NCBI GenBank assembly: GCA_049515895.1
Contig: JBEKTQ010000001.1
Location: forward strand, 96,001-160,000
Reading direction: 5' to 3'
Origin: Candidatus Bathyarchaeia archaeon
Lineage (GTDB): Archaea; Thermoproteota; Bathyarchaeia; Bathyarchaeales; Bathycorpusculaceae
DNA length: 64,000 nt
How positions within the stretch are numbered: position 1 is the first letter of the stretch; each line of letters starts with the position of its first letter. Made by a program: the position numbers and the translations under genes. Under the pieces are notes generated by a model. The model ran no database searches, had not been told where the DNA came from, and saw only the letters and a program-made list of their open reading frames with translations. Below, in pieces: positions 6,359 through 55,999 of this stretch.

Positions 6359-6946
6359 TTACTCTGCTTTTTCTCTGCCTTCCGCCTGTTTCTTTTCCGA
6401 CGGAGCCGCGAGCGGTTCCTTTAACCAATCAAGTTTACCTAGAAATGGCTGTCTGGCTGTCACACCGATCTTTCCTGAACTTCCCGCACGGCCAAGAGAA
6501 ACCGCAGTTATTCTTACCCGCACTTGATCGCCTGCTGATAGTTTTCTTTTGCTTTCTTTCCCAAGCAGAACTCCTTGTTTTTCGTCATAGGAAATGTAGT
6601 CATCCATAAGTTGTGAAACGTGCAGTAACGCATCTACTGGTCCTATCCGCAGGAAAGCTCCGAAATCTGCGATTTCAACTACGTCGCCTTCTACAACTTC
6701 TTGAATGACGGGGTAGAATGTTAAGAGGGAGAAGGATACTTTATGGTAGGTTGCTCCGTCGCCTGGGATTATTTTTCCTATAGGGCTCACTTGAATGCTA
6801 GTGACTGCAATTACATATCCCAATTCCTCGTCAACGACGCCTTCGTACTTCTGCTTTACCTGTTCACGGCCCACTTTTTCCAGGGGGTTGCCGAAGGTTT
6901 CTGGAGGAATGCGGATAGTATCCTGAAGAGTTATGAGTTTAAACAT
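6359..6946 (-). CDS. rpo7: DNA-directed RNA polymerase subunit Rpo7 (E')
   Basis: DTIRIPP, GKIIPGDGATY, S1 domain FGAFLRIGPVDALLHVSQ, RQPFLGKLDW. Confidence 0.96.
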   Translation of the reverse strand: MFKLITLQDTIRIPPETFGNPLEKVGREQVKQKYEGVVDEELGYVIAVTSIQVSPIGKIIPGDGATYHKVSFSLLTFYPVIQEVVEGDVVEIADFGAFLRIGPVDALLHVSQLMDDYISYDEKQGVLLGKESKRKLSAGDQVRVRITAVSLGRAGSSGKIGVTARQPFLGKLDWLKEPLAAPSEKKQAEGREKAE

Positions 6947-7970: not shown

Positions 7971-9221
7971 CTATTTTACTATGAGACCGTGTCCAATGAG
8001 TCTCCAACGAGCCGTGATTTTTCTGCTTATGGCAACTCTTGAACCAGGCAGCGCACAGATTGGTCTAGTCAGCTTTACTTTTATGACGTTTTGTTTTATG
8101 CCGATGATTTTGCCAACGTTCACTGCAGCACCAATGTGAAGCAAAAGTGCCTCGTCAGGATTAAATTTCTCAACCTTTAGAAGCTCTTTTGTTCCCACAG
8201 CCCGCTCTAAAACGTAAGTCTCTAAAGTAAGCTCGGTTAACGTCGGCGGAAGAATTCCAACTTTTCCCGCGATGCTTCCAGTTAAGCCATCTGCTTTCGA
8301 GTATGATGGATCAAGCAATGTTCCAACGCCGACTAGTCCTCCACATGTAGCTTCCTTGACGCTTTGTTCGCCCGCGTGCAAACTGACTATTTCGCTGATA
8401 AGCGGTTCATAGATGGTTTTGCCTTCTCTTTCAACGCTGATTCCTGGGCGAATTTCTATTTCTTCTCCAACAACAAATTTTCCCTGAGCTATTGTTCCTC
8501 CAACAATGCCGCCTTCTAAAGCGTCGATGGTTGTTCCGGGCTTGTTAACGTCAAAGGAGCGAATAATGTACATGAGGGGCGGTTTGGTTTCGTCTCTTTT
8601 GGGCGTGGGAATGATTGTTTCAATAGCGTTGAGCAAGACGTCAATGTTTATGCTTCTTTGCGCGGAGATTGGGATAATCGGTGCCTTTTCAGCCACTGTG
8701 CCTTTGATAAAGTTTTTAATTTCTTTATAGCTTTCCAGCGCTCTTTTCTCGTCTACAATGTCAATTTTGTTCTGCACGACAATTAAGTTTTTAATCCCGC
8801 TAACTTCCGCAGCTGCAAGATGCTCGCGAGTTTGCGGTTGAGGACACGGTTCGTCGGCTGCGATAACGAGAATCGCGCCGTCCATTATTGCTGCGCCGCT
8901 AAGCATGGTGGCCATCAACGCTTCGTGGCCGGGGGCATCTACGAAGCTTATCGCTCGAACAAATTCTGCAGGAGAATTACATTTCTCGCAATAAGGTTTG
9001 TTGGTGTAGTTGTTCGGCGGCTCGCATTTTGGGCATTTGTAAATCGGCATGTCTGCGTAGCCCAGTTTGATAGTGATGCCTCTTTTCAGTTCTTCGCTGT
9101 GTCTAGATGCCCATGTGCCCGTTAACGCTTGCACCAAAGTTGTTTTTCCGTGATCTACGTGACCTATTGTGCCAACGTTGACTTCTGGCTGCTTAAGCAG
9201 GGCTTTTCTCGCGTCACTCAT
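7971..9221 (-). CDS. eif2g: translation initiation factor aIF2 gamma subunit
   Basis: GHVDHGKTT, RGITIKLGYA, DAPGHE, QNKID, RWRLIGHG. Confidence 0.97.
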   Translation of the reverse strand: MSDARKALLKQPEVNVGTIGHVDHGKTTLVQALTGTWASRHSEELKRGITIKLGYADMPIYKCPKCEPPNNYTNKPYCEKCNSPAEFVRAISFVDAPGHEALMATMLSGAAIMDGAILVIAADEPCPQPQTREHLAAAEVSGIKNLIVVQNKIDIVDEKRALESYKEIKNFIKGTVAEKAPIIPISAQRSINIDVLLNAIETIIPTPKRDETKPPLMYIIRSFDVNKPGTTIDALEGGIVGGTIAQGKFVVGEEIEIRPGISVEREGKTIYEPLISEIVSLHAGEQSVKEATCGGLVGVGTLLDPSYSKADGLTGSIAGKVGILPPTLTELTLETYVLERAVGTKELLKVEKFNPDEALLLHIGAAVNVGKIIGIKQNVIKVKLTRPICALPGSRVAISRKITARWRLIGHGLIVK

Positions 9222-50274: not shown

Positions 50275-50358
50275 CTATGAGGTTGCGAAGTGCTTAAGAG
50301 CTAATGTGACGATAATAAGGTTTCCAAACGTTTCCTAAGGTGATTGAGGGGAAAGACC

Positions 50359-51111
50359 ATGTCGATTGACGAGAACACGCGCAGCGCCCTTCGAGAAATG
50401 GGTTTGAACGCCTACGAAATCGACGCTTATGCTACGCTTCTGGAAGTTGGGCAAATGACGGCTATGGAAATCAGTCGAGATGCTAAAGTCCCCTACAGCA
50501 AAATGTACGAGGTTCTAAACTCGCTCAAAGAAAAAGGTTGGATAAAAAGCAACGAAACCCGACCCTTCAAATATTATCCTGTGCCACCGCTCGAAGCAAC
50601 AAGGTCCACCAAGTTACGGTTGGAGGATAAGTATTTGAGTTGGGAAAACACCATCGCGGAAACTCTTCAACCCCTCTACGAAAAACGGGAACTCGTCGAG
50701 CGACCTGATATGCTCATTCTTCGAGGGCAACAAGCGGTGCTGAGCAAACTTGAAGAGGTTTTGGGCAAAGCAGCTAAAGAAGTTGTGATTGCAGCACCGG
50801 AATTTGCCAAACCCGTCATTGCTTTAGCTGAACCCTTGCTGGGAAGCGGTCTGAAGAAGACTGTTAACATTAAGCTTATGGCTGCAGGCAAAAAGGAAGA
50901 TTGGCTTTTCTTAAAGAAAATTTCTGCTTTAAACGAGTTGCGTATCCGCGACCATATGTTCGGCGGCGGCGTGATCGCTGATGGCAAAGAAGCCATGTTG
51001 TTTTTAGGCGAAGACAAGCCCACTCTCGTTATTTGGAGCAACCACGTAGGGCTAGTTGGATTCGCGCGTGAATACTTCCAGTTTCTCTGGGACTCCTCAG
51101 CAACCGCCTAG
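50359..51111 (+). CDS. TrmB-family transcription regulator
   Basis: GLNAYEIDAYATLL, VPYSKMYEVLNSLKEKGWI, RPFKYYPVPP, C-terminal effector domain. Confidence 0.92.
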   Translation: MSIDENTRSALREMGLNAYEIDAYATLLEVGQMTAMEISRDAKVPYSKMYEVLNSLKEKGWIKSNETRPFKYYPVPPLEATRSTKLRLEDKYLSWENTIAETLQPLYEKRELVERPDMLILRGQQAVLSKLEEVLGKAAKEVVIAAPEFAKPVIALAEPLLGSGLKKTVNIKLMAAGKKEDWLFLKKISALNELRIRDHMFGGGVIADGKEAMLFLGEDKPTLVIWSNHVGLVGFAREYFQFLWDSSATA

Positions 51112-51431: not shown

Positions 51432-51565
51432 ATCGACTTCTCCACAGCCTCTTTTTCTTTTTAAAGCAATATTTAAGGTTAGCGCATCAAACTATGTGAA
51501 AAAAATTAAACATATTGCAAATAAAGAGCACAAAACCGTAAACTCTATTTTTAAAATAAGCAGAG

Positions 51566-51898
51566 GTGACTTATATGACTGTTGATTGGAAACTTAGCCA
51601 AGCAGAAGAGGTTTTCATTAATCTCTCTGAAGATTCAGAAATCACTAATTTCCTTAATCATCAAAAGAAAAGCACCAGAAACACTTACTCAGCTTACATG
51701 AGACGTCTGAAAGAATTTACTAATGAGACAGGTCAAGAAATCTTAGCAGAATTAACATACAAAAAGCAGTTTCAAGGCACGTTAGCAGAAAAAGCCATAG
51801 TTGAACTATTGCTCGATATCAGGGAGCAAAACGAGTCTAACAACGGAAAGAAGAAAGCTGCTATGTTAGTGGTTTTAAATAAGCTCAGAATGGGCTAA
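51566..51898 (+). pseudogene. truncated tyrosine recombinase (N-terminal core-binding region only)
   Basis: ITNFLNHQKKSTRNTYSAYMRRLKEFT resembles the integrase SAM-like N-terminus; no catalytic R-H-R-Y region follows. Confidence 0.55.
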
Positions 51899-52143
51899 GT
51901 TTCCAGTTATAGTACGATGGTTTTATCACTTGATTTATCCATCGCGCTTAACCTTTGAGCAATACATAGCAGAAAGGGGATCAGTTTCCTCTGACATGCG
52001 CGCGCGATATGTAGTATAACAACAGATCGGCAGTTTAGTAAAATATCCTAAGTCTCTTTCTATACCTATTTGTTGTCGAGGCAATGTAGACCATATCCAT
52101 ATGCTTAAGTACCAAGTATAGAATAGTATCCTTAGGCTTTGAA

Positions 52144-52680
52144 ATGTCAAAAGTAGAGAAGAGAAAAGAAAAAAAGGACGAGCCTGACTCATTAATTAAT
52201 GCTACGGATAACACCATGGATAAAGATGCGCTAAGTAAACTTAGAGAAGAGTTATTCGCTGATATCATACCTGTGGAATCAATAAAGACTATAAGAAAAG
52301 GAAAAGAACCTAAATACTCTAATCTAGCAGCGGCTATAAAGCTAGTAGGTAAGATGTCAAGGAATGCCTACAGATTAAACCTTGAGAAAGTGTTCCAATT
52401 AGATAACTTTAGTAATCTAAATCCTAAAGAGAAGAAAGCATTGGTAAGAAAGGTCTATCCAATACTGGATCGATATTTAAAGGAGTTTGCAAGTACACAT
52501 GGCTATGATCTATCTAAGAAAGAAGTAAAGAAGACCAAACAAGGAAAAGAGATCCTCATTAAGGGAGTTAAGATGGCTACACTTCCAGAGTACGCTAAAT
52601 TCAAAAAAGAAACTATAAGTATGAGACTAGTTGGATCTGATATCTACCTAATTAAGCAGAGTGATATACCAATTGAATAG
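52144..52680 (+). CDS. Lys-rich hypothetical protein
   Basis: 178-aa ORF with AT-rich codon usage; no family recognised. Confidence 0.65.
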   Translation: MSKVEKRKEKKDEPDSLINATDNTMDKDALSKLREELFADIIPVESIKTIRKGKEPKYSNLAAAIKLVGKMSRNAYRLNLEKVFQLDNFSNLNPKEKKALVRKVYPILDRYLKEFASTHGYDLSKKEVKKTKQGKEILIKGVKMATLPEYAKFKKETISMRLVGSDIYLIKQSDIPIE

Positions 52681-52720
52681 ATATATTAGATAGCTATCTT
52701 TTATATTACATGAACAGAGC

Positions 52721-53506
52721 ATGTCAAATGATGAAAACACGGATCTATTGCTTGGTCTGGGTTTGAGTCTTAATCAGGCAAGGGTTTATTTAGCAATACT
52801 CAAACTGGAAAAAACAACAATAGGACAGGTAGCGAAGTTTTCAAAAGTACGCAGAGAAGACGTCTATAGAATTATGCCGTCACTCGAAAAAATGGGTCTG
52901 ATAGAAAGATTAATGGGCAAACCAGCTGTAATCAGGGCTACCCCAATCTCGGATGCCTTAAGCTTTCTAGTGGCTGAAGAAAAAGTCAAATCTGATGATC
53001 GTTTAACGGGGATGCGGAGTAAAGTCCAAAAGTTGTCTCTCAAGGATTGGAAACAGCCAGTTCTTGCAGAAGAAAGCATTTACATACTGATAGCGGAAAA
53101 GAAAGCAATTTTAGCAAAGACTTCAGAACTGATTAGAAATTCAAAAAAAGAGGTCGCGTTGATTGCCGACAAGGCAAGAATCATACCGACTTTGTCTCAG
53201 TTTTCAGAAGAATGCAAGCAGGCAATAAAGAAAGGCAGTCAGATTTGCCTAATTTTTGAAGGAGACGGTCCTGACGTTTTGCTCAAAGAAAAAGTCCAAA
53301 AACTCATCGATGGCACGTCTGTTCATATCAAATTTCATCGTGAGTCTTTGAATCACTTCATAATGTCCGATGACGAGGAAGCGTTGATTACTACCTCTAA
53401 AGAAAGCGGGTTAGGCGAGAGTCCTTCTCTTTGGACAAACAACAGCAACCTCATAGGCGTTATAAGAAAAAGTTTTGAATCCGACTGGAAAGAAGCTGAA
53501 AACTAA
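52721..53506 (+). CDS. TrmB-like HTH transcription regulator
   Basis: LGLSLNQARVYLAIL, VRREDVYRIMPSLEKMGLIE, PLD-like C-terminal domain (FIMSDDEEALI, LWTNN). Confidence 0.85.
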   Translation: MSNDENTDLLLGLGLSLNQARVYLAILKLEKTTIGQVAKFSKVRREDVYRIMPSLEKMGLIERLMGKPAVIRATPISDALSFLVAEEKVKSDDRLTGMRSKVQKLSLKDWKQPVLAEESIYILIAEKKAILAKTSELIRNSKKEVALIADKARIIPTLSQFSEECKQAIKKGSQICLIFEGDGPDVLLKEKVQKLIDGTSVHIKFHRESLNHFIMSDDEEALITTSKESGLGESPSLWTNNSNLIGVIRKSFESDWKEAEN

Positions 53507-53915
53507 CCCTTTTTATTGTTTACTAGTGAGTTGTTTGGACACATCTGACAAAATAATCTTAGAAGTCGTTGACATAGTGTTATCCAAACTGGACTTTGTA
53601 AATAAAGAAGAGTTTTATTCAATCCTTAAGGAAAAATACAAGCTTGATAAAACTAACCTCAGCGAAAACCTTGATACATTCCAATTAGCCCTTAAGGAAA
53701 TATATGGAATCAAGCACCTCAGAGTAGAGCGGTCACTAATTAGAGTTCTACATGAAAGGGCATTAAACGGTTACTATGAACTTAGCGATGAGATTACAGT
53801 TTTTTTGTTGATGGTTAAGGTTTTTTCTACTGATGTAAACACAGAATTAGAAAAATCGAAAGAAAAACTAAGATTGTCGCATTTCTATGAGAAAGTAAAC
53901 GATGCCAAACGCTAA
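53475..53915 (+). CDS. hypothetical protein (helical, possibly an archaeal signalling output-type domain); start uncertain
   Basis: ILEVVDIVLSKL...FYSILKEKYKL...FQLALKEIYG pattern. Confidence 0.5.
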   Translation: MNPTGKKLKTNPFYCLLVSCLDTSDKIILEVVDIVLSKLDFVNKEEFYSILKEKYKLDKTNLSENLDTFQLALKEIYGIKHLRVERSLIRVLHERALNGYYELSDEITVFLLMVKVFSTDVNTELEKSKEKLRLSHFYEKVNDAKR

Positions 53916-54132
53916 GGGCAGAAAGCAAAATTAGTTTTCTTTTGGTAACTTGGTGAAATTTCCAGAGACCCTTAAACGGTTAGGGCTTTTAACGAGTGCA
54001 TTCAAGGGTTTGGATGTATTCAGTAGAATTTAGCTAGTTTTCATGAAGATAAGTCTTAAATCTGCATAGCGTAGAAAGAACAGCAATAAGGGAAGAGAGC
54101 TGTTTGTCAAGACTTGAAAGCATTAGATTACG

Positions 54133-55068
54133 TTACGCTCTTGGTAAAGAAACCTCACCCATCTCGTAATAAGCGTTCTTCATTTCCTTGAAAAGAGATG
54201 CATTTCCAAAGTAGAGATTGTCTTGATACTCAATAGCCTTAACATTTACAAGCTCTTCCAGAACATATGGTAATCTGAAGTAAACTTTTGATTTAGTCCC
54301 ATATAACATAGCAATATGGTGCTCAAAAGAATCTTTTTTCCAATAGATCAATTCTTCCGCTTCTAAAGCTGGTCTATAATAACAGCTATCAACATGAACA
54401 ACCGTCTCGAGTTGAGAAATGCCAAAGGTCTCTCTTAGAGCGGAATAACGGGTCTTGATTATGTGAGAAAGAATAGATGTATTTAGCTTCTCGGGGTCAT
54501 TGTCCGTTCCAACGCAGAGTTCAGTAAACATATTTCCATATGAATATCGATTATTCTCATGCTCAACTATTTCTAAACTTTCAAGTAATTGCAGGTACTT
54601 TCTAAGTTTGATAGCTTCTTTGATAGGAAGGGCATCAATATCACTATCTGGTATAGTCTTGTTCCATTTCAATCGAGAAATAATCATTCCGATTTTACCT
54701 AAGAAAAACTTGGCTTCATTTGTTTTAGCTAATTTGTCGGATGATGCCTTCACAATTATTTTTTCTGCTCGTTCTTGCCAGATATTAAGATAATCTGAAA
54801 GATTGTTTACGCAATCATCTCTTGAGGTTGCCTCAATGGATTGAAGATTTTCTGCAACTTTAATAGCTCCAAGTCTGCGAAGAGAAAGGAATTTCACGAT
54901 TCTCTCTTCAGGGCAACGGTCGTCATGGATAATTCGAGGATAGTCAGATTGTAGCTCTGCAATCCATCCTTTTCCTTCAGGATCAAACTCAGGTTCACCA
55001 ACAGAAATGAGGTTGCCATAATGTTGAATTGCGTAATTACGAATTACAGACTTAACGCTCATTCCCAT
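54133..55068 (-). CDS. hypothetical protein with two winged-helix-like repeats
   Basis: LRKYLQLLESLEIVEHENNRYSYG and LPYVLEELVNVKAIEYQDNLYFG; overlaps the upstream peptidase by 17 nt. Confidence 0.75.
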   Translation of the reverse strand: MGMSVKSVIRNYAIQHYGNLISVGEPEFDPEGKGWIAELQSDYPRIIHDDRCPEERIVKFLSLRRLGAIKVAENLQSIEATSRDDCVNNLSDYLNIWQERAEKIIVKASSDKLAKTNEAKFFLGKIGMIISRLKWNKTIPDSDIDALPIKEAIKLRKYLQLLESLEIVEHENNRYSYGNMFTELCVGTDNDPEKLNTSILSHIIKTRYSALRETFGISQLETVVHVDSCYYRPALEAEELIYWKKDSFEHHIAMLYGTKSKVYFRLPYVLEELVNVKAIEYQDNLYFGNASLFKEMKNAYYEMGEVSLPRA

Positions 55069-55687
55069 TTTCTAATCCCTTTTCTTGCTCGAGTAATTCT
55101 TTTCCCAGAGGAAATTCTTCTAACATCCTTTGTTTCTTTTTACCTATTTTAACTTTTATTAGAACTCGGTCTTCTTCATCCCATAAGGTGACAAAGTCAG
55201 TAATTTTTGCGGTCTTTTCGCCATATATCGGGTCATTATAATAAATCTGACCACTTTCTCTTTCTATACCTGTAATCACGACAGCATGAGCGCATTTCTT
55301 TATGTGCTCTTCATCATAGAGGCGAATCCACGCTATTGGGGGTTGATCATCCCCAATTTCACTTTCTATTTCATCTAATGTATGTGAACTTAGTTTTAGT
55401 TCAAATTCAATCGAAGGAATAGAAGACGCCAATTCGCTGATCTTATTAGAGTTTAAGTTTAGAACTTTGTCTGGAAAAGTCCCATCCTTCTTTGTTTCAA
55501 TTATTTTTCCTATCTTTTCCAAATCGAAGTCTGGTACACGACTTCCTTCAAATTCATTGGCAACAAACATGAAAATCATTTTAATGCATCTTGGAACGCA
55601 AGAAAAACCATCTTCCTGACGAGGTACCACCATAGGCAAGATAGTCGAGGCGTGACAATAGCACCTGATTATGCCTAATTTGTCCAA
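55052..55687 (-). CDS. C39-like (papain-fold) cysteine peptidase; start uncertain
   Basis: QEDGFSC (oxyanion Q, catalytic C), HAVVITG (H), YYNDP (D). Confidence 0.85.
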   Translation of the reverse strand: MDKLGIIRCYCHASTILPMVVPRQEDGFSCVPRCIKMIFMFVANEFEGSRVPDFDLEKIGKIIETKKDGTFPDKVLNLNSNKISELASSIPSIEFELKLSSHTLDEIESEIGDDQPPIAWIRLYDEEHIKKCAHAVVITGIERESGQIYYNDPIYGEKTAKITDFVTLWDEEDRVLIKVKIGKKKQRMLEEFPLGKELLEQEKGLENGNER

Positions 55688-55999
55688 CTCGTATATCAGA
55701 TTTGCCCTTATTAGCTTGAATGGATGAGAGGATAATGTTCAATTAGGGATATTTTAAAAAACCATCCCTTTTGTTTATTCGTTCTACAGTTTGAGACCAC
55801 TTACGGCTAAGCAATATTCTTTATAAGACACTATCTATCCCATGTTTAAACAAAAAAACTAAAGGTTGAATGAGCTTGAGAAAAGCAATATTTAACTTTT
55901 TTTGTGCCTTTTAGTTTAAATTATCGACATATAACCTTGCCCAGCAGAGAAAGAAAATTATAAGAAACACTCAACAATGATAATCTTGCAGGGAAAAGA

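Follow-up and report, generated by a model that had tools for sequence, protein, structure and literature searches.

A mobile gene pair of Bathyarchaeia couples a C39-like papain-fold peptidase to a candidate cognate inhibitor

A C39-like cysteine peptidase and a 311-residue partner protein are encoded by two adjoining genes that form a real, conserved unit, and in a bathyarchaeon from peat this unit is a horizontally mobile cassette carried on an inserted island. Complex models support physical binding of the two proteins and predict that the C-terminus of the partner plugs the active site of the peptidase; our tentative reading, which falls a little short of being probable, is that the pair is a self-contained, toxin-antidote-like cassette consisting of a latent cytoplasmic cysteine protease and its own inhibitor or regulator. 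The pair lies in a stretch of 64,000 nucleotides that was analyzed as a whole (here termed the window), and all coordinates refer to it. Bathyarchaeia are an abundant uncultured archaeal class, and to our knowledge almost nothing is known about their toxin-antidote and defense modules. As the preliminary description of this DNA had supposed, the pair matches no described system: PADLOC-DB 2.0 at an E value of ≤0.1 returned no family for either protein, neither matched PHROGs, and the partner belongs to no Pfam or NCBIfam family. A search of the literature on Bathyarchaeia, archaeal PIP boxes, C39_2 peptidases, and papain-like toxin-antitoxin systems, mostly in records without full texts, found no published account of the peptidase-partner pair.

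RESULTS

Conservation and distribution of the gene pair

The two genes lie on the minus strand, with the peptidase open reading frame (ORF) at 55052..55687 and the partner ORF at 54133..55068, and they overlap by 17 nt, as had been stated previously; across loci, the peptidase stop and the partner start either overlap or are no more than 21 nt apart. Co-occurrence of the genes, on which the proposal of a two-gene system had been made to depend, was evident from both directions. Each of the 17 strong peptidase matches (E ≤ 3e-24), which come from 14 of the 401 genomes of the class, had a partner match directly downstream, and an uninterrupted peptidase gene adjoined 23 of the 27 testable partner loci (those scoring 200 bits or more), among them copies with no more than ~30% identity. 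Loci with the partner only or with a decayed peptidase were also encountered: L005 and L023 are without a peptidase, the peptidase of L010 is reduced to a remnant, and that of L012 is interrupted by an in-frame stop. The converse, a peptidase lacking its partner, did not occur among the strong peptidase matches in the 401 class genomes. The distribution of the pair is patchy, with representatives in 21 of the 401 genomes of the class and 6 of the 40 genomes of the genus, and a copy in a genome of another class matches with an E value of 1e-142, compared to ~1e-68 to 1e-84 for copies from the same genus. The sequencing runs listed as containing the sequence comprised nine of DNA, for the most part from metagenomes of peat and wetland, and none of RNA.

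The inserted island and its surroundings

The features that delimit the island are as follows.

51477..55895, no strand: 4.4-kb AT-rich inserted island, lacking at the corresponding site, between the histone gene and TatD, of four genomes of the same genus
51463..51476, plus strand: left copy of a 14-nt direct repeat, AAAGCAATATTTAA, att-like or a target duplication
55882..55895, plus strand: right copy of the same 14-nt repeat, which is present once in the empty sites of relatives
51566..51898, plus strand: 110-codon ORF adjoining the left junction, possibly (weakly) an integrase N-terminal remnant

The island carries the pair together with four ORFs, at 51566-51898, 52144-52680, 52721-53506 (TrmB-like), and 53475-53915, and its GC content, 0.35 to 0.39 over 51 to 56 kb, contrasts with 0.43 to 0.50 in the flanks. 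The earlier notion of an AT-rich island with an integrase remnant therefore holds for composition and insertion; the integrase component fared less well, as the match of the ORF at 51566-51898 to PF13102 (Phage_int_SAM_5; E value of 0.055) reached 14.3 bits, below the cut-off of 22.3, and there was no PHROG match. Flanking genes differ between loci of the pair, and at locus L008 the cassette is bracketed by a 300-nt repeat of 80% identity. Mobile traces are otherwise scattered, with an IS240-type transposase and a type I S-subunit fragment at L004 and an archaeal integrase fragment at L011. When 86 neighboring proteins from 12 loci were examined with Pfam and PADLOC, they proved to be mostly housekeeping proteins and included no recurring third gene; five had PADLOC matches, mutually unrelated, and the enrichment near defense genes that might have been expected was not seen. 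No conserved small ORF was present upstream or downstream of the pair, and the alignment of six close loci revealed no conserved operator upstream, the only element common to them being a loose AAA-C-ATAT-like stretch.

Catalytic set, fold, and location of the peptidase

Residue numbers of the peptidase refer to the 211-residue frame, which extends back to a TTG at 55687; the alignment of homologs indicates that the real start is the ATG of M19 (55633). One database gene call starts at M37, so the catalytic Cys is missing from that call. The main features are listed below.

55052..55633, minus strand: C39-like papain-fold cysteine peptidase, 193 residues from the ATG of M19
55598..55618, minus strand: Q24 (55616-55618) to catalytic C30 (55598-55600), motif QEDGFSC, kept family-wide
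55286..55288, minus strand: codon of catalytic His134, invariant in the homolog alignment
55232..55234, minus strand: codon of Asp152 (YNDP), the third catalytic residue, invariant in the homolog alignment
55112..55132, minus strand: QRMLEEF (Q1, L4, F7, PIP-like), preceded by KKK, within the disordered tail

The Q/C/H/D set, correctly described from the outset as intact, comprises Q24, C30, H134, and D152. Of 24 paired peptidases, 23 retain all four residues and the other is cut short by an in-frame stop; in an alignment of 32 sequences, H134 and D152 do not vary at all, and C30 shows conservation of at least 90%. By score and fold, the protein belongs to Peptidase_C39_2 and the C39-like peptidases of clan CA, with predicted activity. 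PF13529 (Peptidase_C39_2) matched with 27.4 bits against a cut-off of 24, covering only residues 98 to 153, PF12385 (C70) matched with 23 bits against a cut-off of 19, and C39 models of NCBIfam matched below threshold only. The AF2 model (pLDDT of 86.1) gave 32 Foldseek matches in the PDB at an E value of ≤1e-3, led by PCAT1, PeiR, and ComA; the PCAT1 C39 domain was matched with an E value of 1.1e-5 and a TM score of 0.51, and the remaining matches included phytochelatin synthase (E value of 3.8e-4), a lyase (22oc), AziU3/U2, staphopain, and papain-like toxin-immunity pairs. The peptidase is in all likelihood soluble, cytoplasmic, and stand-alone. Neither a transmembrane segment nor a signal-like stretch is present (maximum 19-residue Kyte-Doolittle mean of 1.13), and Pfam detects no ABC-transporter domain; the absence of an obvious signal peptide and of the ABC domain had been reported originally. 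No longer or fused forms were found, in a search that constitutes weak evidence on this point.

The peptidase tail

Residues 182 to 211 (55055-55144) form a disordered tail, without secondary structure, in which the mean pLDDT is 70 for residues 181 to 190, 49 for residues 191 to 200, and 53 for residues 201 to 210; the PIP-like motif QRMLEEF lies at the position given for it previously. A lone Qxx[LIM]xx[FYW] pattern in the last 30 residues is carried by 52 of the 2,752 ORFs of the same genome, so a single tail motif is not significant alone, and it is conservation of the motif that counts. This conservation was borne out in our alignments: the strict motif (Q1, L4, and F7, with one to three K/R in the four residues before Q) is present in 72 of 94 homologs, and Q-x-x-[LI]-x-x-[FYW] is retained in deeply diverged peptidases whose partner is only ~30% identical. 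In one subclade, the motif Q is replaced by E or is shifted by one position. At position 8, the peptidase of the window has P; most homologs have P, D, G, V, or E there, and only 5 of 72 have F, Y, W, or L. Between the motif and the C-terminus are 19 residues here and 3 to 33 (median, 12) in homologs, compared to 0 to 4 residues in five Pfam-checked PCNA clients of the same genome. Thus, the tail resembles a PIP box in Q1, the aliphatic residue at position 4, the aromatic residue at position 7, and disorder, and departs from one in the residue at position 8 and in its placement. The missing second aromatic residue is not disqualifying, since PolD DP2 (KQAKLFDFSS) and a Hel308-like helicase (KQRALSEF, closely similar to KQRMLEEF of the peptidase) have single-aromatic PIP boxes in the same genome and since, in the accessible part of the source, 43% of 77 confirmed PCNA motifs are without one aromatic (PMC6881253). 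The same part of that source locates archaeal PIPs at the very C-terminus (PMC6881253). The genome encodes one PCNA (G000:C11:50403.., locus L015).

The partner protein

The partner was resolved into the following parts.

54133..55068, minus strand: partner protein of 311 residues, of no known family, directly downstream of the peptidase
54823..55068, minus strand: N-terminal beta-rich domain (residues 1 to 82) with the conserved block SDYPRIIHDD, from model and alignment
54496..54720, minus strand: winged helix 1 (residues ~117 to 191) of the AF2 model, with IclR and MarR-type matches (Z of 6 to 7)
54154..54411, minus strand: winged helix 2 (residues ~220 to 305) with the conserved block HVDSCYYRPALEAE and Fur/PerR, MCM8, and ORC matches (Z of 6.6 to 8.9)
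54136..54147, minus strand: C-terminal tail L308-P309-R310-A311, disordered in the monomer model

In the AF2 model of the partner (pLDDT of 90.7), an N-terminal beta domain is followed by a long helix and then by two winged helices; these winged helices correspond to the two helix-plus-wing repeats of the preliminary description, in which the beta domain and the long helix had gone unnoted. Winged-helix Z values of 6 to 9 represent generic matches, and the sole, weak fold match of the beta domain was to a fungalysin propeptide chain (Z of 6.4). Foldseek searches of the PDB and BFVD with the partner model gave no match at an E value of ≤1e-3, the partner profile, run against the sequences of the PDB, yielded a single match, at an E value of 0.1, and the best ESM Atlas score, 0.85, was below the level counted as more than a lead. 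The partner family comprises 326 clusters (50% identity) at an E value of ≤1e-3; the best 150 of these 326 are all of 346 residues or fewer, with no fusion to another domain, and a scan of viral contigs found no relatives. The partner is the better conserved member of the pair, with a mean column identity of 55% compared to 47% for the peptidase. Both of its winged helices are acidic, with net charges of −2 for the first and −5 for the second, and in the complex model described below the putative recognition helix of winged helix 1 (153-164) contacts the peptidase; on these grounds, the DNA binding earlier ascribed to the partner is doubtful, and the acidity gives no indication of antitoxin-style operator binding. 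Partner C-termini are conserved in register, ending in PRA in 61 of 116 homologs and in x-[RK]-[AIV] in most others, with a few homologs running 1 to 6 residues past RA or RG (PRAC, PRACARI, and LRGGASLTV). Across the wider partner family, the C-terminal tripeptide is very variable, an observation that counts against the inhibitor-cassette reading.

Model of the complex

Modeling of the peptidase with its partner, which had been put forward as a check on the pair, yielded ipSAE values of 0.76, 0.78, and 0.80 in three runs, compared to 0.00 for the best of three controls. Of 157 solved complexes, 116 attain the mark used for such scores, which the present pair passed, as do 2 of 215 mismatched pairs; this calibration holds only roughly here because our own, unpaired alignments were used. 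Memory of a similar complex is an unlikely source of the score, since the partner has no solved relative by sequence. The runs agreed in at least 95% of contacts, with a partner pLDDT of at least 86. The confident interface involves peptidase residues 30 to 31, 68 to 73, and 132 to 135 and partner residues 308 to 311, and the end of the partner (…LPRA) is placed inside the cleft, at the catalytic residues C30 and H134. Beyond the cleft, peptidase helix 161-175 is modeled as packing against the long helix (88-103), the winged helix 1 helix (153-164), and helix 206-214 of the partner, and the winged helix 1 helix touches the peptidase over 149-164. The peptidase tail is not named among the confident contacts. 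A comparison of partner C-termini with peptidase cleft residues in 24 pairs revealed no clear covariation. The tail-in-cleft pose fits the partner equally well as a processed substrate.

DISCUSSION

We suggest that the two genes are translationally coupled and that their products would assemble into a 1:1 complex, in which the free C-terminus of the partner (…L-P-R-A-COOH) may lie in the cleft in the manner of a bound product or pseudo-substrate and so hold the enzyme shut. Loss of the partner or a change in its conformation, perhaps in response to a trigger sensed via the conserved beta domain or the second winged helix, would free the protease to cut cellular targets, and the module could thereby act as a toxin-antidote, addiction, or abortive-defense cassette of small integrated elements. 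The PIP-like tail appears to be dispensable for the modeled contact with the partner and may serve to dock the peptidase on a third party, with PCNA the best candidate that can be named. A more specific sequel, in which the tail carries the released protease to PCNA at replication forks, where the enzyme cuts the clamp or clamp-bound proteins and stops the replication of the cell or of an invader, seems to us improbable. The pairing of the genes, the partner-only loci, the complex model, the retention of the partner C-terminus and the catalytic residues, the mobility of the cassette, and the tail all count for the cassette reading; the lack of a PADLOC match, of a consistent defense context, and of a relative on viral contigs counts against it. 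Typical antitoxins are small and fast-evolving, and the large size of the partner (311 residues) and its conservation, greater than that of the peptidase, speak against a toxin-antidote function.

The pair defines an unannotated protein family, for which the model suggests a concrete mechanism in which the C-terminal end of a cognate partner blocks a papain-fold protease. Should the tail bind PCNA, the peptidase would become the first clamp-tethered protease of archaea, a connection between mobile-element conflict and the replisome, and an archaeal counterpart of the eukaryotic proteases recruited by PCNA; if fork-targeted release also proved true, the cassette would be a replication-targeted addiction or abortive-defense system without a described counterpart. 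Even without PCNA, a product-mimic plug would represent a simple inhibitory design, potentially suitable for reuse in controllable proteases.

The preliminary description had taken the tail for a true PIP box that places the protease, with or without the partner, on PCNA, either as a replication-sensing addiction or defense effector or as a DNA-protein crosslink protease. We regard this as unlikely, if less so than the fork-targeted sequel outlined above, and it is compatible with the inhibitor-cassette reading, in which the tail would be a targeting device. The strict motif with its preceding basic residues recurs in most homologs and its pattern persists in distant copies, the disordered location leaves it clear of the confident partner contacts, single-aromatic motifs occur in PolD DP2 and the Hel308-like helicase of this genome as well as among the confirmed motifs in the accessible part of PMC6881253, and a PCNA is encoded; set against these points are the rarity of F, Y, W, or L at position 8, the stretch of residues that follows the motif where checked clients and archaeal PIPs in general (PMC6881253, accessible part) are at or near the C-terminus, the replaced or shifted Q of one subclade, and the frequency with which the relaxed pattern arises by chance. 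The crosslink protease, which would be an analog of SPRTN or FAM111A, is a particularly poor fit with a pair found in 21 of 401 genomes on inserted, mobile DNA and with acidic winged helices.

It is distinctly unlikely, in our judgment, that the partner is a substrate, a winged-helix regulator or scaffold that is cut on a signal or matured at its C-terminus as by a UBL-specific protease. Strict gene adjacency and the substrate-like position of the modeled tail at C30 and H134 would suit such a role, and the few homologs that extend past the conserved end could be viewed as unprocessed precursors, but most partners already end at the conserved residue, leaving nothing to be cut there, no conjugation or accessory genes are conserved nearby, and the large helical interface beyond the tail looks stable rather than like a transient enzyme-substrate contact. 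The Foldseek matches to phytochelatin synthase, the lyase, and AziU3/U2 raise the question of whether the papain-fold protein is a protease at all, as opposed to an acyltransferase, transglutaminase, deamidase, or peptide ligase (compare BtrH and phytochelatin synthase) acting on or with the partner C-terminus, and BtrH_N and phytochelatin synthase are placed close to C39 and C70 in the accessible part of PMC10318531. We give this possibility very little weight, as C39 peptidase domains lead the matches in both sequence and fold and no cofactor or substrate genes are linked to the pair. Least credible, to the point of being almost dismissible, is classical C39 maturation of an exported double-glycine (bacteriocin-like) peptide, to which only family resemblance points; the peptidase has no ABC domain, no signal peptide, and no known fused form, no small ORF is conserved beside the pair, neighbors are unrelated between loci, and the tail modeled in the cleft ends in R-A.

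Comparison of the inhibitor-cassette reading with known systems brings out both likenesses and differences. C39 peptidases of the PCAT/ComA type (PF03412) and PF13529 share with the peptidase a papain-like fold with Q/C/H/D, and PCAT1 holds a leader peptide at its catalytic Cys, where the partner tail, with small or defined P1 and P2, is modeled here. Unlike PCAT/ComA proteins, the peptidase is predicted to be cytoplasmic and stand-alone, has no transporter, and has a conserved disordered C-terminal motif, and the tail modeled in its cleft is the free C-terminus (R-A) of a 311-residue protein rather than a Gly-Gly leader followed by cargo. Staphostatin occupies the active-site cleft of staphopain, and in both cases the gene of a papain-fold protease is followed in the same operon by that of a cognate protein located, here according to the model, in the cleft; in contrast to staphostatin, a beta-barrel of ~100 residues, the partner combines a beta domain with two winged helices in 311 residues, and the peptidase, unlike staphopain, is not secreted and would be blocked by the C-terminal end of its partner.

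Type II toxin-antitoxin systems likewise consist of two coupled genes on mobile DNA with a patchy distribution, neutralize the enzyme through direct contact, a disordered C-terminal tail being placed at its active site (predicted for the present pair), and include antidotes that occur alone, the enzyme alone never having been seen here. The pair differs from them in the large size of the putative antidote, which is also better conserved than the putative toxin, in the position of the enzyme gene ahead of the other, and in the lack of a PADLOC match. SPRTN and FAM111A are PCNA-tethered eukaryotic proteases that, like the peptidase, have a QxxLxxF-type motif in a disordered tail; their catalytic class is unrelated, however, the candidate motif described here is nonterminal and without a second aromatic residue, and the pair consists of accessory island genes rather than core repair genes. 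ImmA/ImmR are protease-repressor pairs of mobile elements in which ImmA cleaves ImmR; they resemble the present pair in the location, within an integrated element, of a protease gene next to one for an HTH or winged-helix protein. ImmA is a metalloprotease, unlike the cysteine papain-fold enzyme described here, and the winged helices of the partner, in contrast to ImmR, are acidic, with one of them contacting protein in the model.

The gene pair and its peptidase

Both of the minus-strand ORFs that had been described as overlapping by 17 nt were found in the window where they had been placed, with that overlap:

55052..55687, minus strand: peptidase ORF, 211 aa counted from TTG
54133..55068, minus strand: partner ORF, 311 aa

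The peptidase N-terminus, VP..PLQEDGFSCVPRC, is conserved across 32 aligned homologs, which identifies the ATG of M19 (55633) as the actual start codon and gives a protein of 193 aa; residue numbers follow the 211-aa frame. Some database gene calls begin at M37 and miss the catalytic Cys. Five of six close loci share a loosely conserved CAAATCTGATATAC-like stretch (window 55691-55704) about 60 nt 5' of the M19 ATG. It is a possible BRE/TATA for the operon, and its position just 5' of the long-frame TTG (55687) counts against TTG as the start.

The peptidase matches Pfam Peptidase_C39_2 (27.4 bits; cut-off, 24) and C70/AvrRpt2 (23 bits; cut-off, 19), and in a PDB search its family profile matched the PCAT1 peptidase domain (E 0.0033). 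Its AF2 model (pLDDT 86.1, pTM 0.80) gave 32 Foldseek matches at E<=1e-3, headed by PCAT1 (E 1.1e-5), the pseudomurein endoisopeptidase PeiR, and ComA, with staphopain, phytochelatin synthase, and papain-like toxin-immunity entries also among them. The homolog alignment shows no variation at H134 or D152 and conservation of 90% or more at C30. Among 24 peptidases at paired loci, 23 retain all of Q24, C30, H134, and D152, and the other is cut by a stop. The preliminary description of a stand-alone enzyme with an intact Q...C/H/D set thus stands: no ABC domain was detected with Pfam, there is no hydrophobic segment, and a search among longer proteins, in itself weak evidence, found no fused form. 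The protein is acidic (pI 4.9).

Conservation of the pair across genomes

The partner profile matched 21 of the 401 class genomes searched (15 of the 220 of high quality; 6 of the 40 within the genus), and the peptidase profile identified 17 strong places in 14 genomes, all 17 of which abut a partner match by coordinates; adjacency, which bore out the proposed coupling, extends to copies whose partner is only about 30% identical to that of the window. An intact adjacent peptidase is present at 23 of 27 testable partner loci (matches of at least 200 bits; one further such locus runs into a contig edge), and of 12 loci in species-representative genomes, 9 have an unbroken peptidase gene immediately 5' of the partner, the exceptions being L012, L010, and L005. 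The peptidase is decayed by an in-frame TAA at L012:7408-7989 (G328:C14), reduced to a C-terminal remnant of its last ~30 codons at L010:3190-3387, and absent at L005 (7756-8000) and L023, in each case beside an intact partner. Peptidase stop and partner start overlap by 4 to 17 nt or are separated by up to 21 nt. No conserved third gene accompanies the pair, the neighbors varying from locus to locus, and small ORFs on either side are not alignable between loci.

All named records of the pair are from Bathyarchaeia or Methanomethylicus apart from the sole "bacterial" one, a 3.2-kb contig (L006) binned in a Pirellulales MAG, which is probably a binning error rather than a bacterial copy. At L009:9570-13495, ~0.7 kb separates the pair, on the upstream side, from a NurA-HerA-phosphoesterase (Mre11-like) cluster; in the related L010 the distance to this cluster is 5 kb, making a DNA-repair link inconsistent.

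An inserted island

The AT-rich surroundings noted earlier were confirmed, GC being 0.35-0.39 at 51-56 kb of the window versus 0.43-0.50 on either side. In four same-genus genomes the TrmB gene, histone gene, and TatD follow one another as in the window, with a histone gene-TatD gap of only ~110 nt, and DNA alignment with same-genus genomes put the insertion breakpoints at window 51476 and 55882.

Window 51463-51476 and 55882-55895: 14-nt direct repeat AAAGCAATATTTAA, bounding the 4.4-kb insert between histone gene and TatD
L075:12232-12245, L076:12520-12533, L077:5235-5248, and L074:5239-5252: empty sites in four same-genus genomes, each with a single AAAGCAATATTTAA copy and no insert

Since two copies of the repeat bound the insert and each empty site has one, the AT-rich island (51477-55895, 4.4 kb) is a site-specific insertion. 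Of the integrase remnant reported previously, there is an ORF beside the left junction that resembles an integrase N-terminal domain, albeit weakly (E 0.055). A copy in a genome of another class (E 1e-142) matches more strongly than several same-genus copies (~1e-68 to 1e-84), which points to horizontal transfer; a scan of viral contigs found no copy.

The island has its own TrmB-family regulator (window 52721-53506), a distant paralog of the core TrmB (50344-51111) just outside it, with only 22-24% identity to the core TrmB orthologs of relatives. At L008, a 300-nt direct repeat (6621-6920 and 8902-9201; 80% identity) brackets the pair and one small ORF; one repeat copy is the 3' terminus of a gene for an ABC-type ATPase and the other a fragment duplicated from it (70% identical as protein), and the bracketed segment, which contains no integrase, looks like an insertion that brought a replacement gene end. 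A same-genus copy at L078 (G324:C3, 4339-5800), only 30% identical, lies ~6 kb from the same TatD neighborhood at a different site, and in the closest relative a different insert, ~2.1 kb long, separates TrmB from the histone gene (L074, G420:C1, 5494-7650). The TrmB-histone intergenic neighborhood may be an insertion hot spot.

The partner and the modeled complex

The partner has no match in Pfam, NCBIfam, or PHROGs and no solved relative by sequence in a PDB search. Its family is well populated: a 90%-clustered database yielded 116 hits, and when 1.84 billion representatives were searched with a profile, 326 clusters matched at E<=1e-3, of which 240 also passed E<=1e-10; the best 150 of the 326 are all <=346 aa, giving no sign of fusions. 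The AF2 model is confident (pLDDT 90.7, pTM 0.84):

Residues 1-82: N-terminal beta-rich domain
Residues 83-113: 30-residue helix
Residues ~117-191: winged helix 1
Between the two winged helices: linker helix
Residues ~220-305: winged helix 2
Residues 306-311: disordered end

The two helix-plus-wing repeats seen previously are thus reproduced, but that account was incomplete, missing the beta domain and the long helix. VIA-align related winged helix 1 to IclR and MarR-type domains and winged helix 2 to Fur/PerR, MCM8-WH, and ORC-WH (Z 6-8.9 over both, generic values), and Foldseek gave no match at E<=1e-3 in the PDB or BFVD. The two winged helices each have an acidic net charge (-2 and -5) and the pI of the whole protein is 5.8, so DNA binding by the partner is not favored.

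The partner, chosen for having no known family, was modeled with peptidase residues 19-211. Three runs gave ipSAE values, which express model confidence and are not measurements, of 0.76, 0.78, and 0.80, versus 0.00 for the best of three controls; 116 of 157 solved complexes attain the mark used, as do 2 of 215 mismatched pairs, in a calibration set built without user-made alignments of the kind employed here. At least 95% of contacts are shared between runs, and partner pLDDT is at least 86. In the confident interface, peptidase helix 161-175 faces partner helices 88-103, 153-164 (the "recognition" helix of winged helix 1), and 206-214, and partner residues 308-311 are placed against peptidase 30-31, 68-73, and 132-135, a patch comprising the catalytic Cys and His and the invariant G69-T70 loop. 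The partner end is conserved in register, as PRA in 61 of 116 homologs and mostly x-[RK]-[AIV] in the others, with 1-6 extra C-terminal residues in a few; across more distant members the final tripeptide is highly variable, as expected if each partner fits its own enzyme. We read the modeled C-terminus as a product-like or pseudosubstrate plug, from which inhibition would follow.

Possible function

The pair fits a toxin-antidote-like or abortive-defense-like cassette of small integrated elements, because its genes are coupled, patchy and transferable in distribution, and set in an inserted island; because the peptidase was never found without the partner, which does occur alone; and because intact catalytic residues are joined to a modeled active-site plug. 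The partner C-terminus would hold the active site closed, and the conserved tail of the peptidase would take the freed protease to its target, the pair working like known protease-inhibitor and toxin-antidote pairs. Against such a cassette, the partner is large, more conserved than the peptidase, and acidic in its winged helices; no operator is evident in aligned upstream regions of close loci; neighbors show no consistent defense context, nor the enrichment near defense genes suggested earlier as a check; and neither protein matches any PADLOC model, which also means that no described system was recognized there. A protease with its substrate, in a maturation or ImmA/ImmR-like relationship, seems to us improbable, and a papain-fold protein with nonprotease activity more improbable still; classical peptide maturation by a C39 enzyme, contradicted by the lack of a transporter and of a leader-peptide gene, is scarcely credible. 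The partner family, the predicted C-terminal plug, and the conserved PIP-like tail appear to be new, as we found no descriptions of them; nor was the pair described in the literature retrieved by full-text search, judged mostly from listings.

The peptidase tail and PCNA

Peptidase residues 182-211 are disordered in the AF2 model (mean pLDDT of 70, 49, and 53 per ten-residue block) and contain QRMLEEF, exactly at 55112-55132 as first reported. K180 and I181 are invariant, and conservation at L189 and E191 is 90% or more. Retention of the motif was borne out: the strict pattern Q-x-x-[LIMV]-x-x-[FYW] occurs in 72 of 94 homologs, with 1-3 K/R among the four positions preceding the Q, a further 17 match only once E is accepted at position 1 (some by chance), and distant copies keep the pattern (QRIIPEY, QRQIPEW, QSSLYEY, QTTIGDY, and QTYISGY). 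The tail is absent from the confident partner contacts of the complex model, from which it does not follow that it is free.

Among the 2752 ORFs in the same genome that are 100 aa or longer, 14 have the strict two-aromatic PIP pattern within their last 30 residues and 52 a relaxed one. Five PIP-motif proteins of this genome, checked by Pfam, served for comparison:

Y-family polymerase: QKQLTHFFQAS
Nre: QKKISDFFKA
DUF72 protein: QSQLGEFF
PolD DP2: KQAKLFDFSS
Hel308-like helicase: KQRALSEF

The last two indicate that single-aromatic PIPs occur in this genome, and the helicase motif is strikingly similar to KQRMLEEF of the peptidase; moreover, according to PMC6881253, one aromatic is missing from 43% of 77 confirmed motifs. 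The same paper places archaeal PIPs at the very C-terminus, and all five clients end 0-4 residues past the motif, whereas 19 residues follow it here and 3-33 (median, 12) in peptidase homologs, and only 5 of 72 homologs have F, Y, W, or L at position 8. Docking of the tail on PCNA is possible but doubtful, and a clamp-docked latent protease that stops replication is unlikely.

The survey also brought out PIP-like ends in proteins outside the classical client list, which are candidate unrecognized PCNA clients of Bathyarchaeia: two paralogous ~218-aa proteins of no Pfam family (L083, G000:C20:54709-55359, and L084, G000:C22:49090-49746, ending …KKKQQAMARWESI and …QKKQQALTRWEDI), a DUF488 protein (L081, G000:C7:84113-84691), a DUF72 protein (L041, G000:C3:80131-80946), and a 430-aa protein of no Pfam family (L040, G000:C2:3246-4535) ending …KQLNMNDFW.
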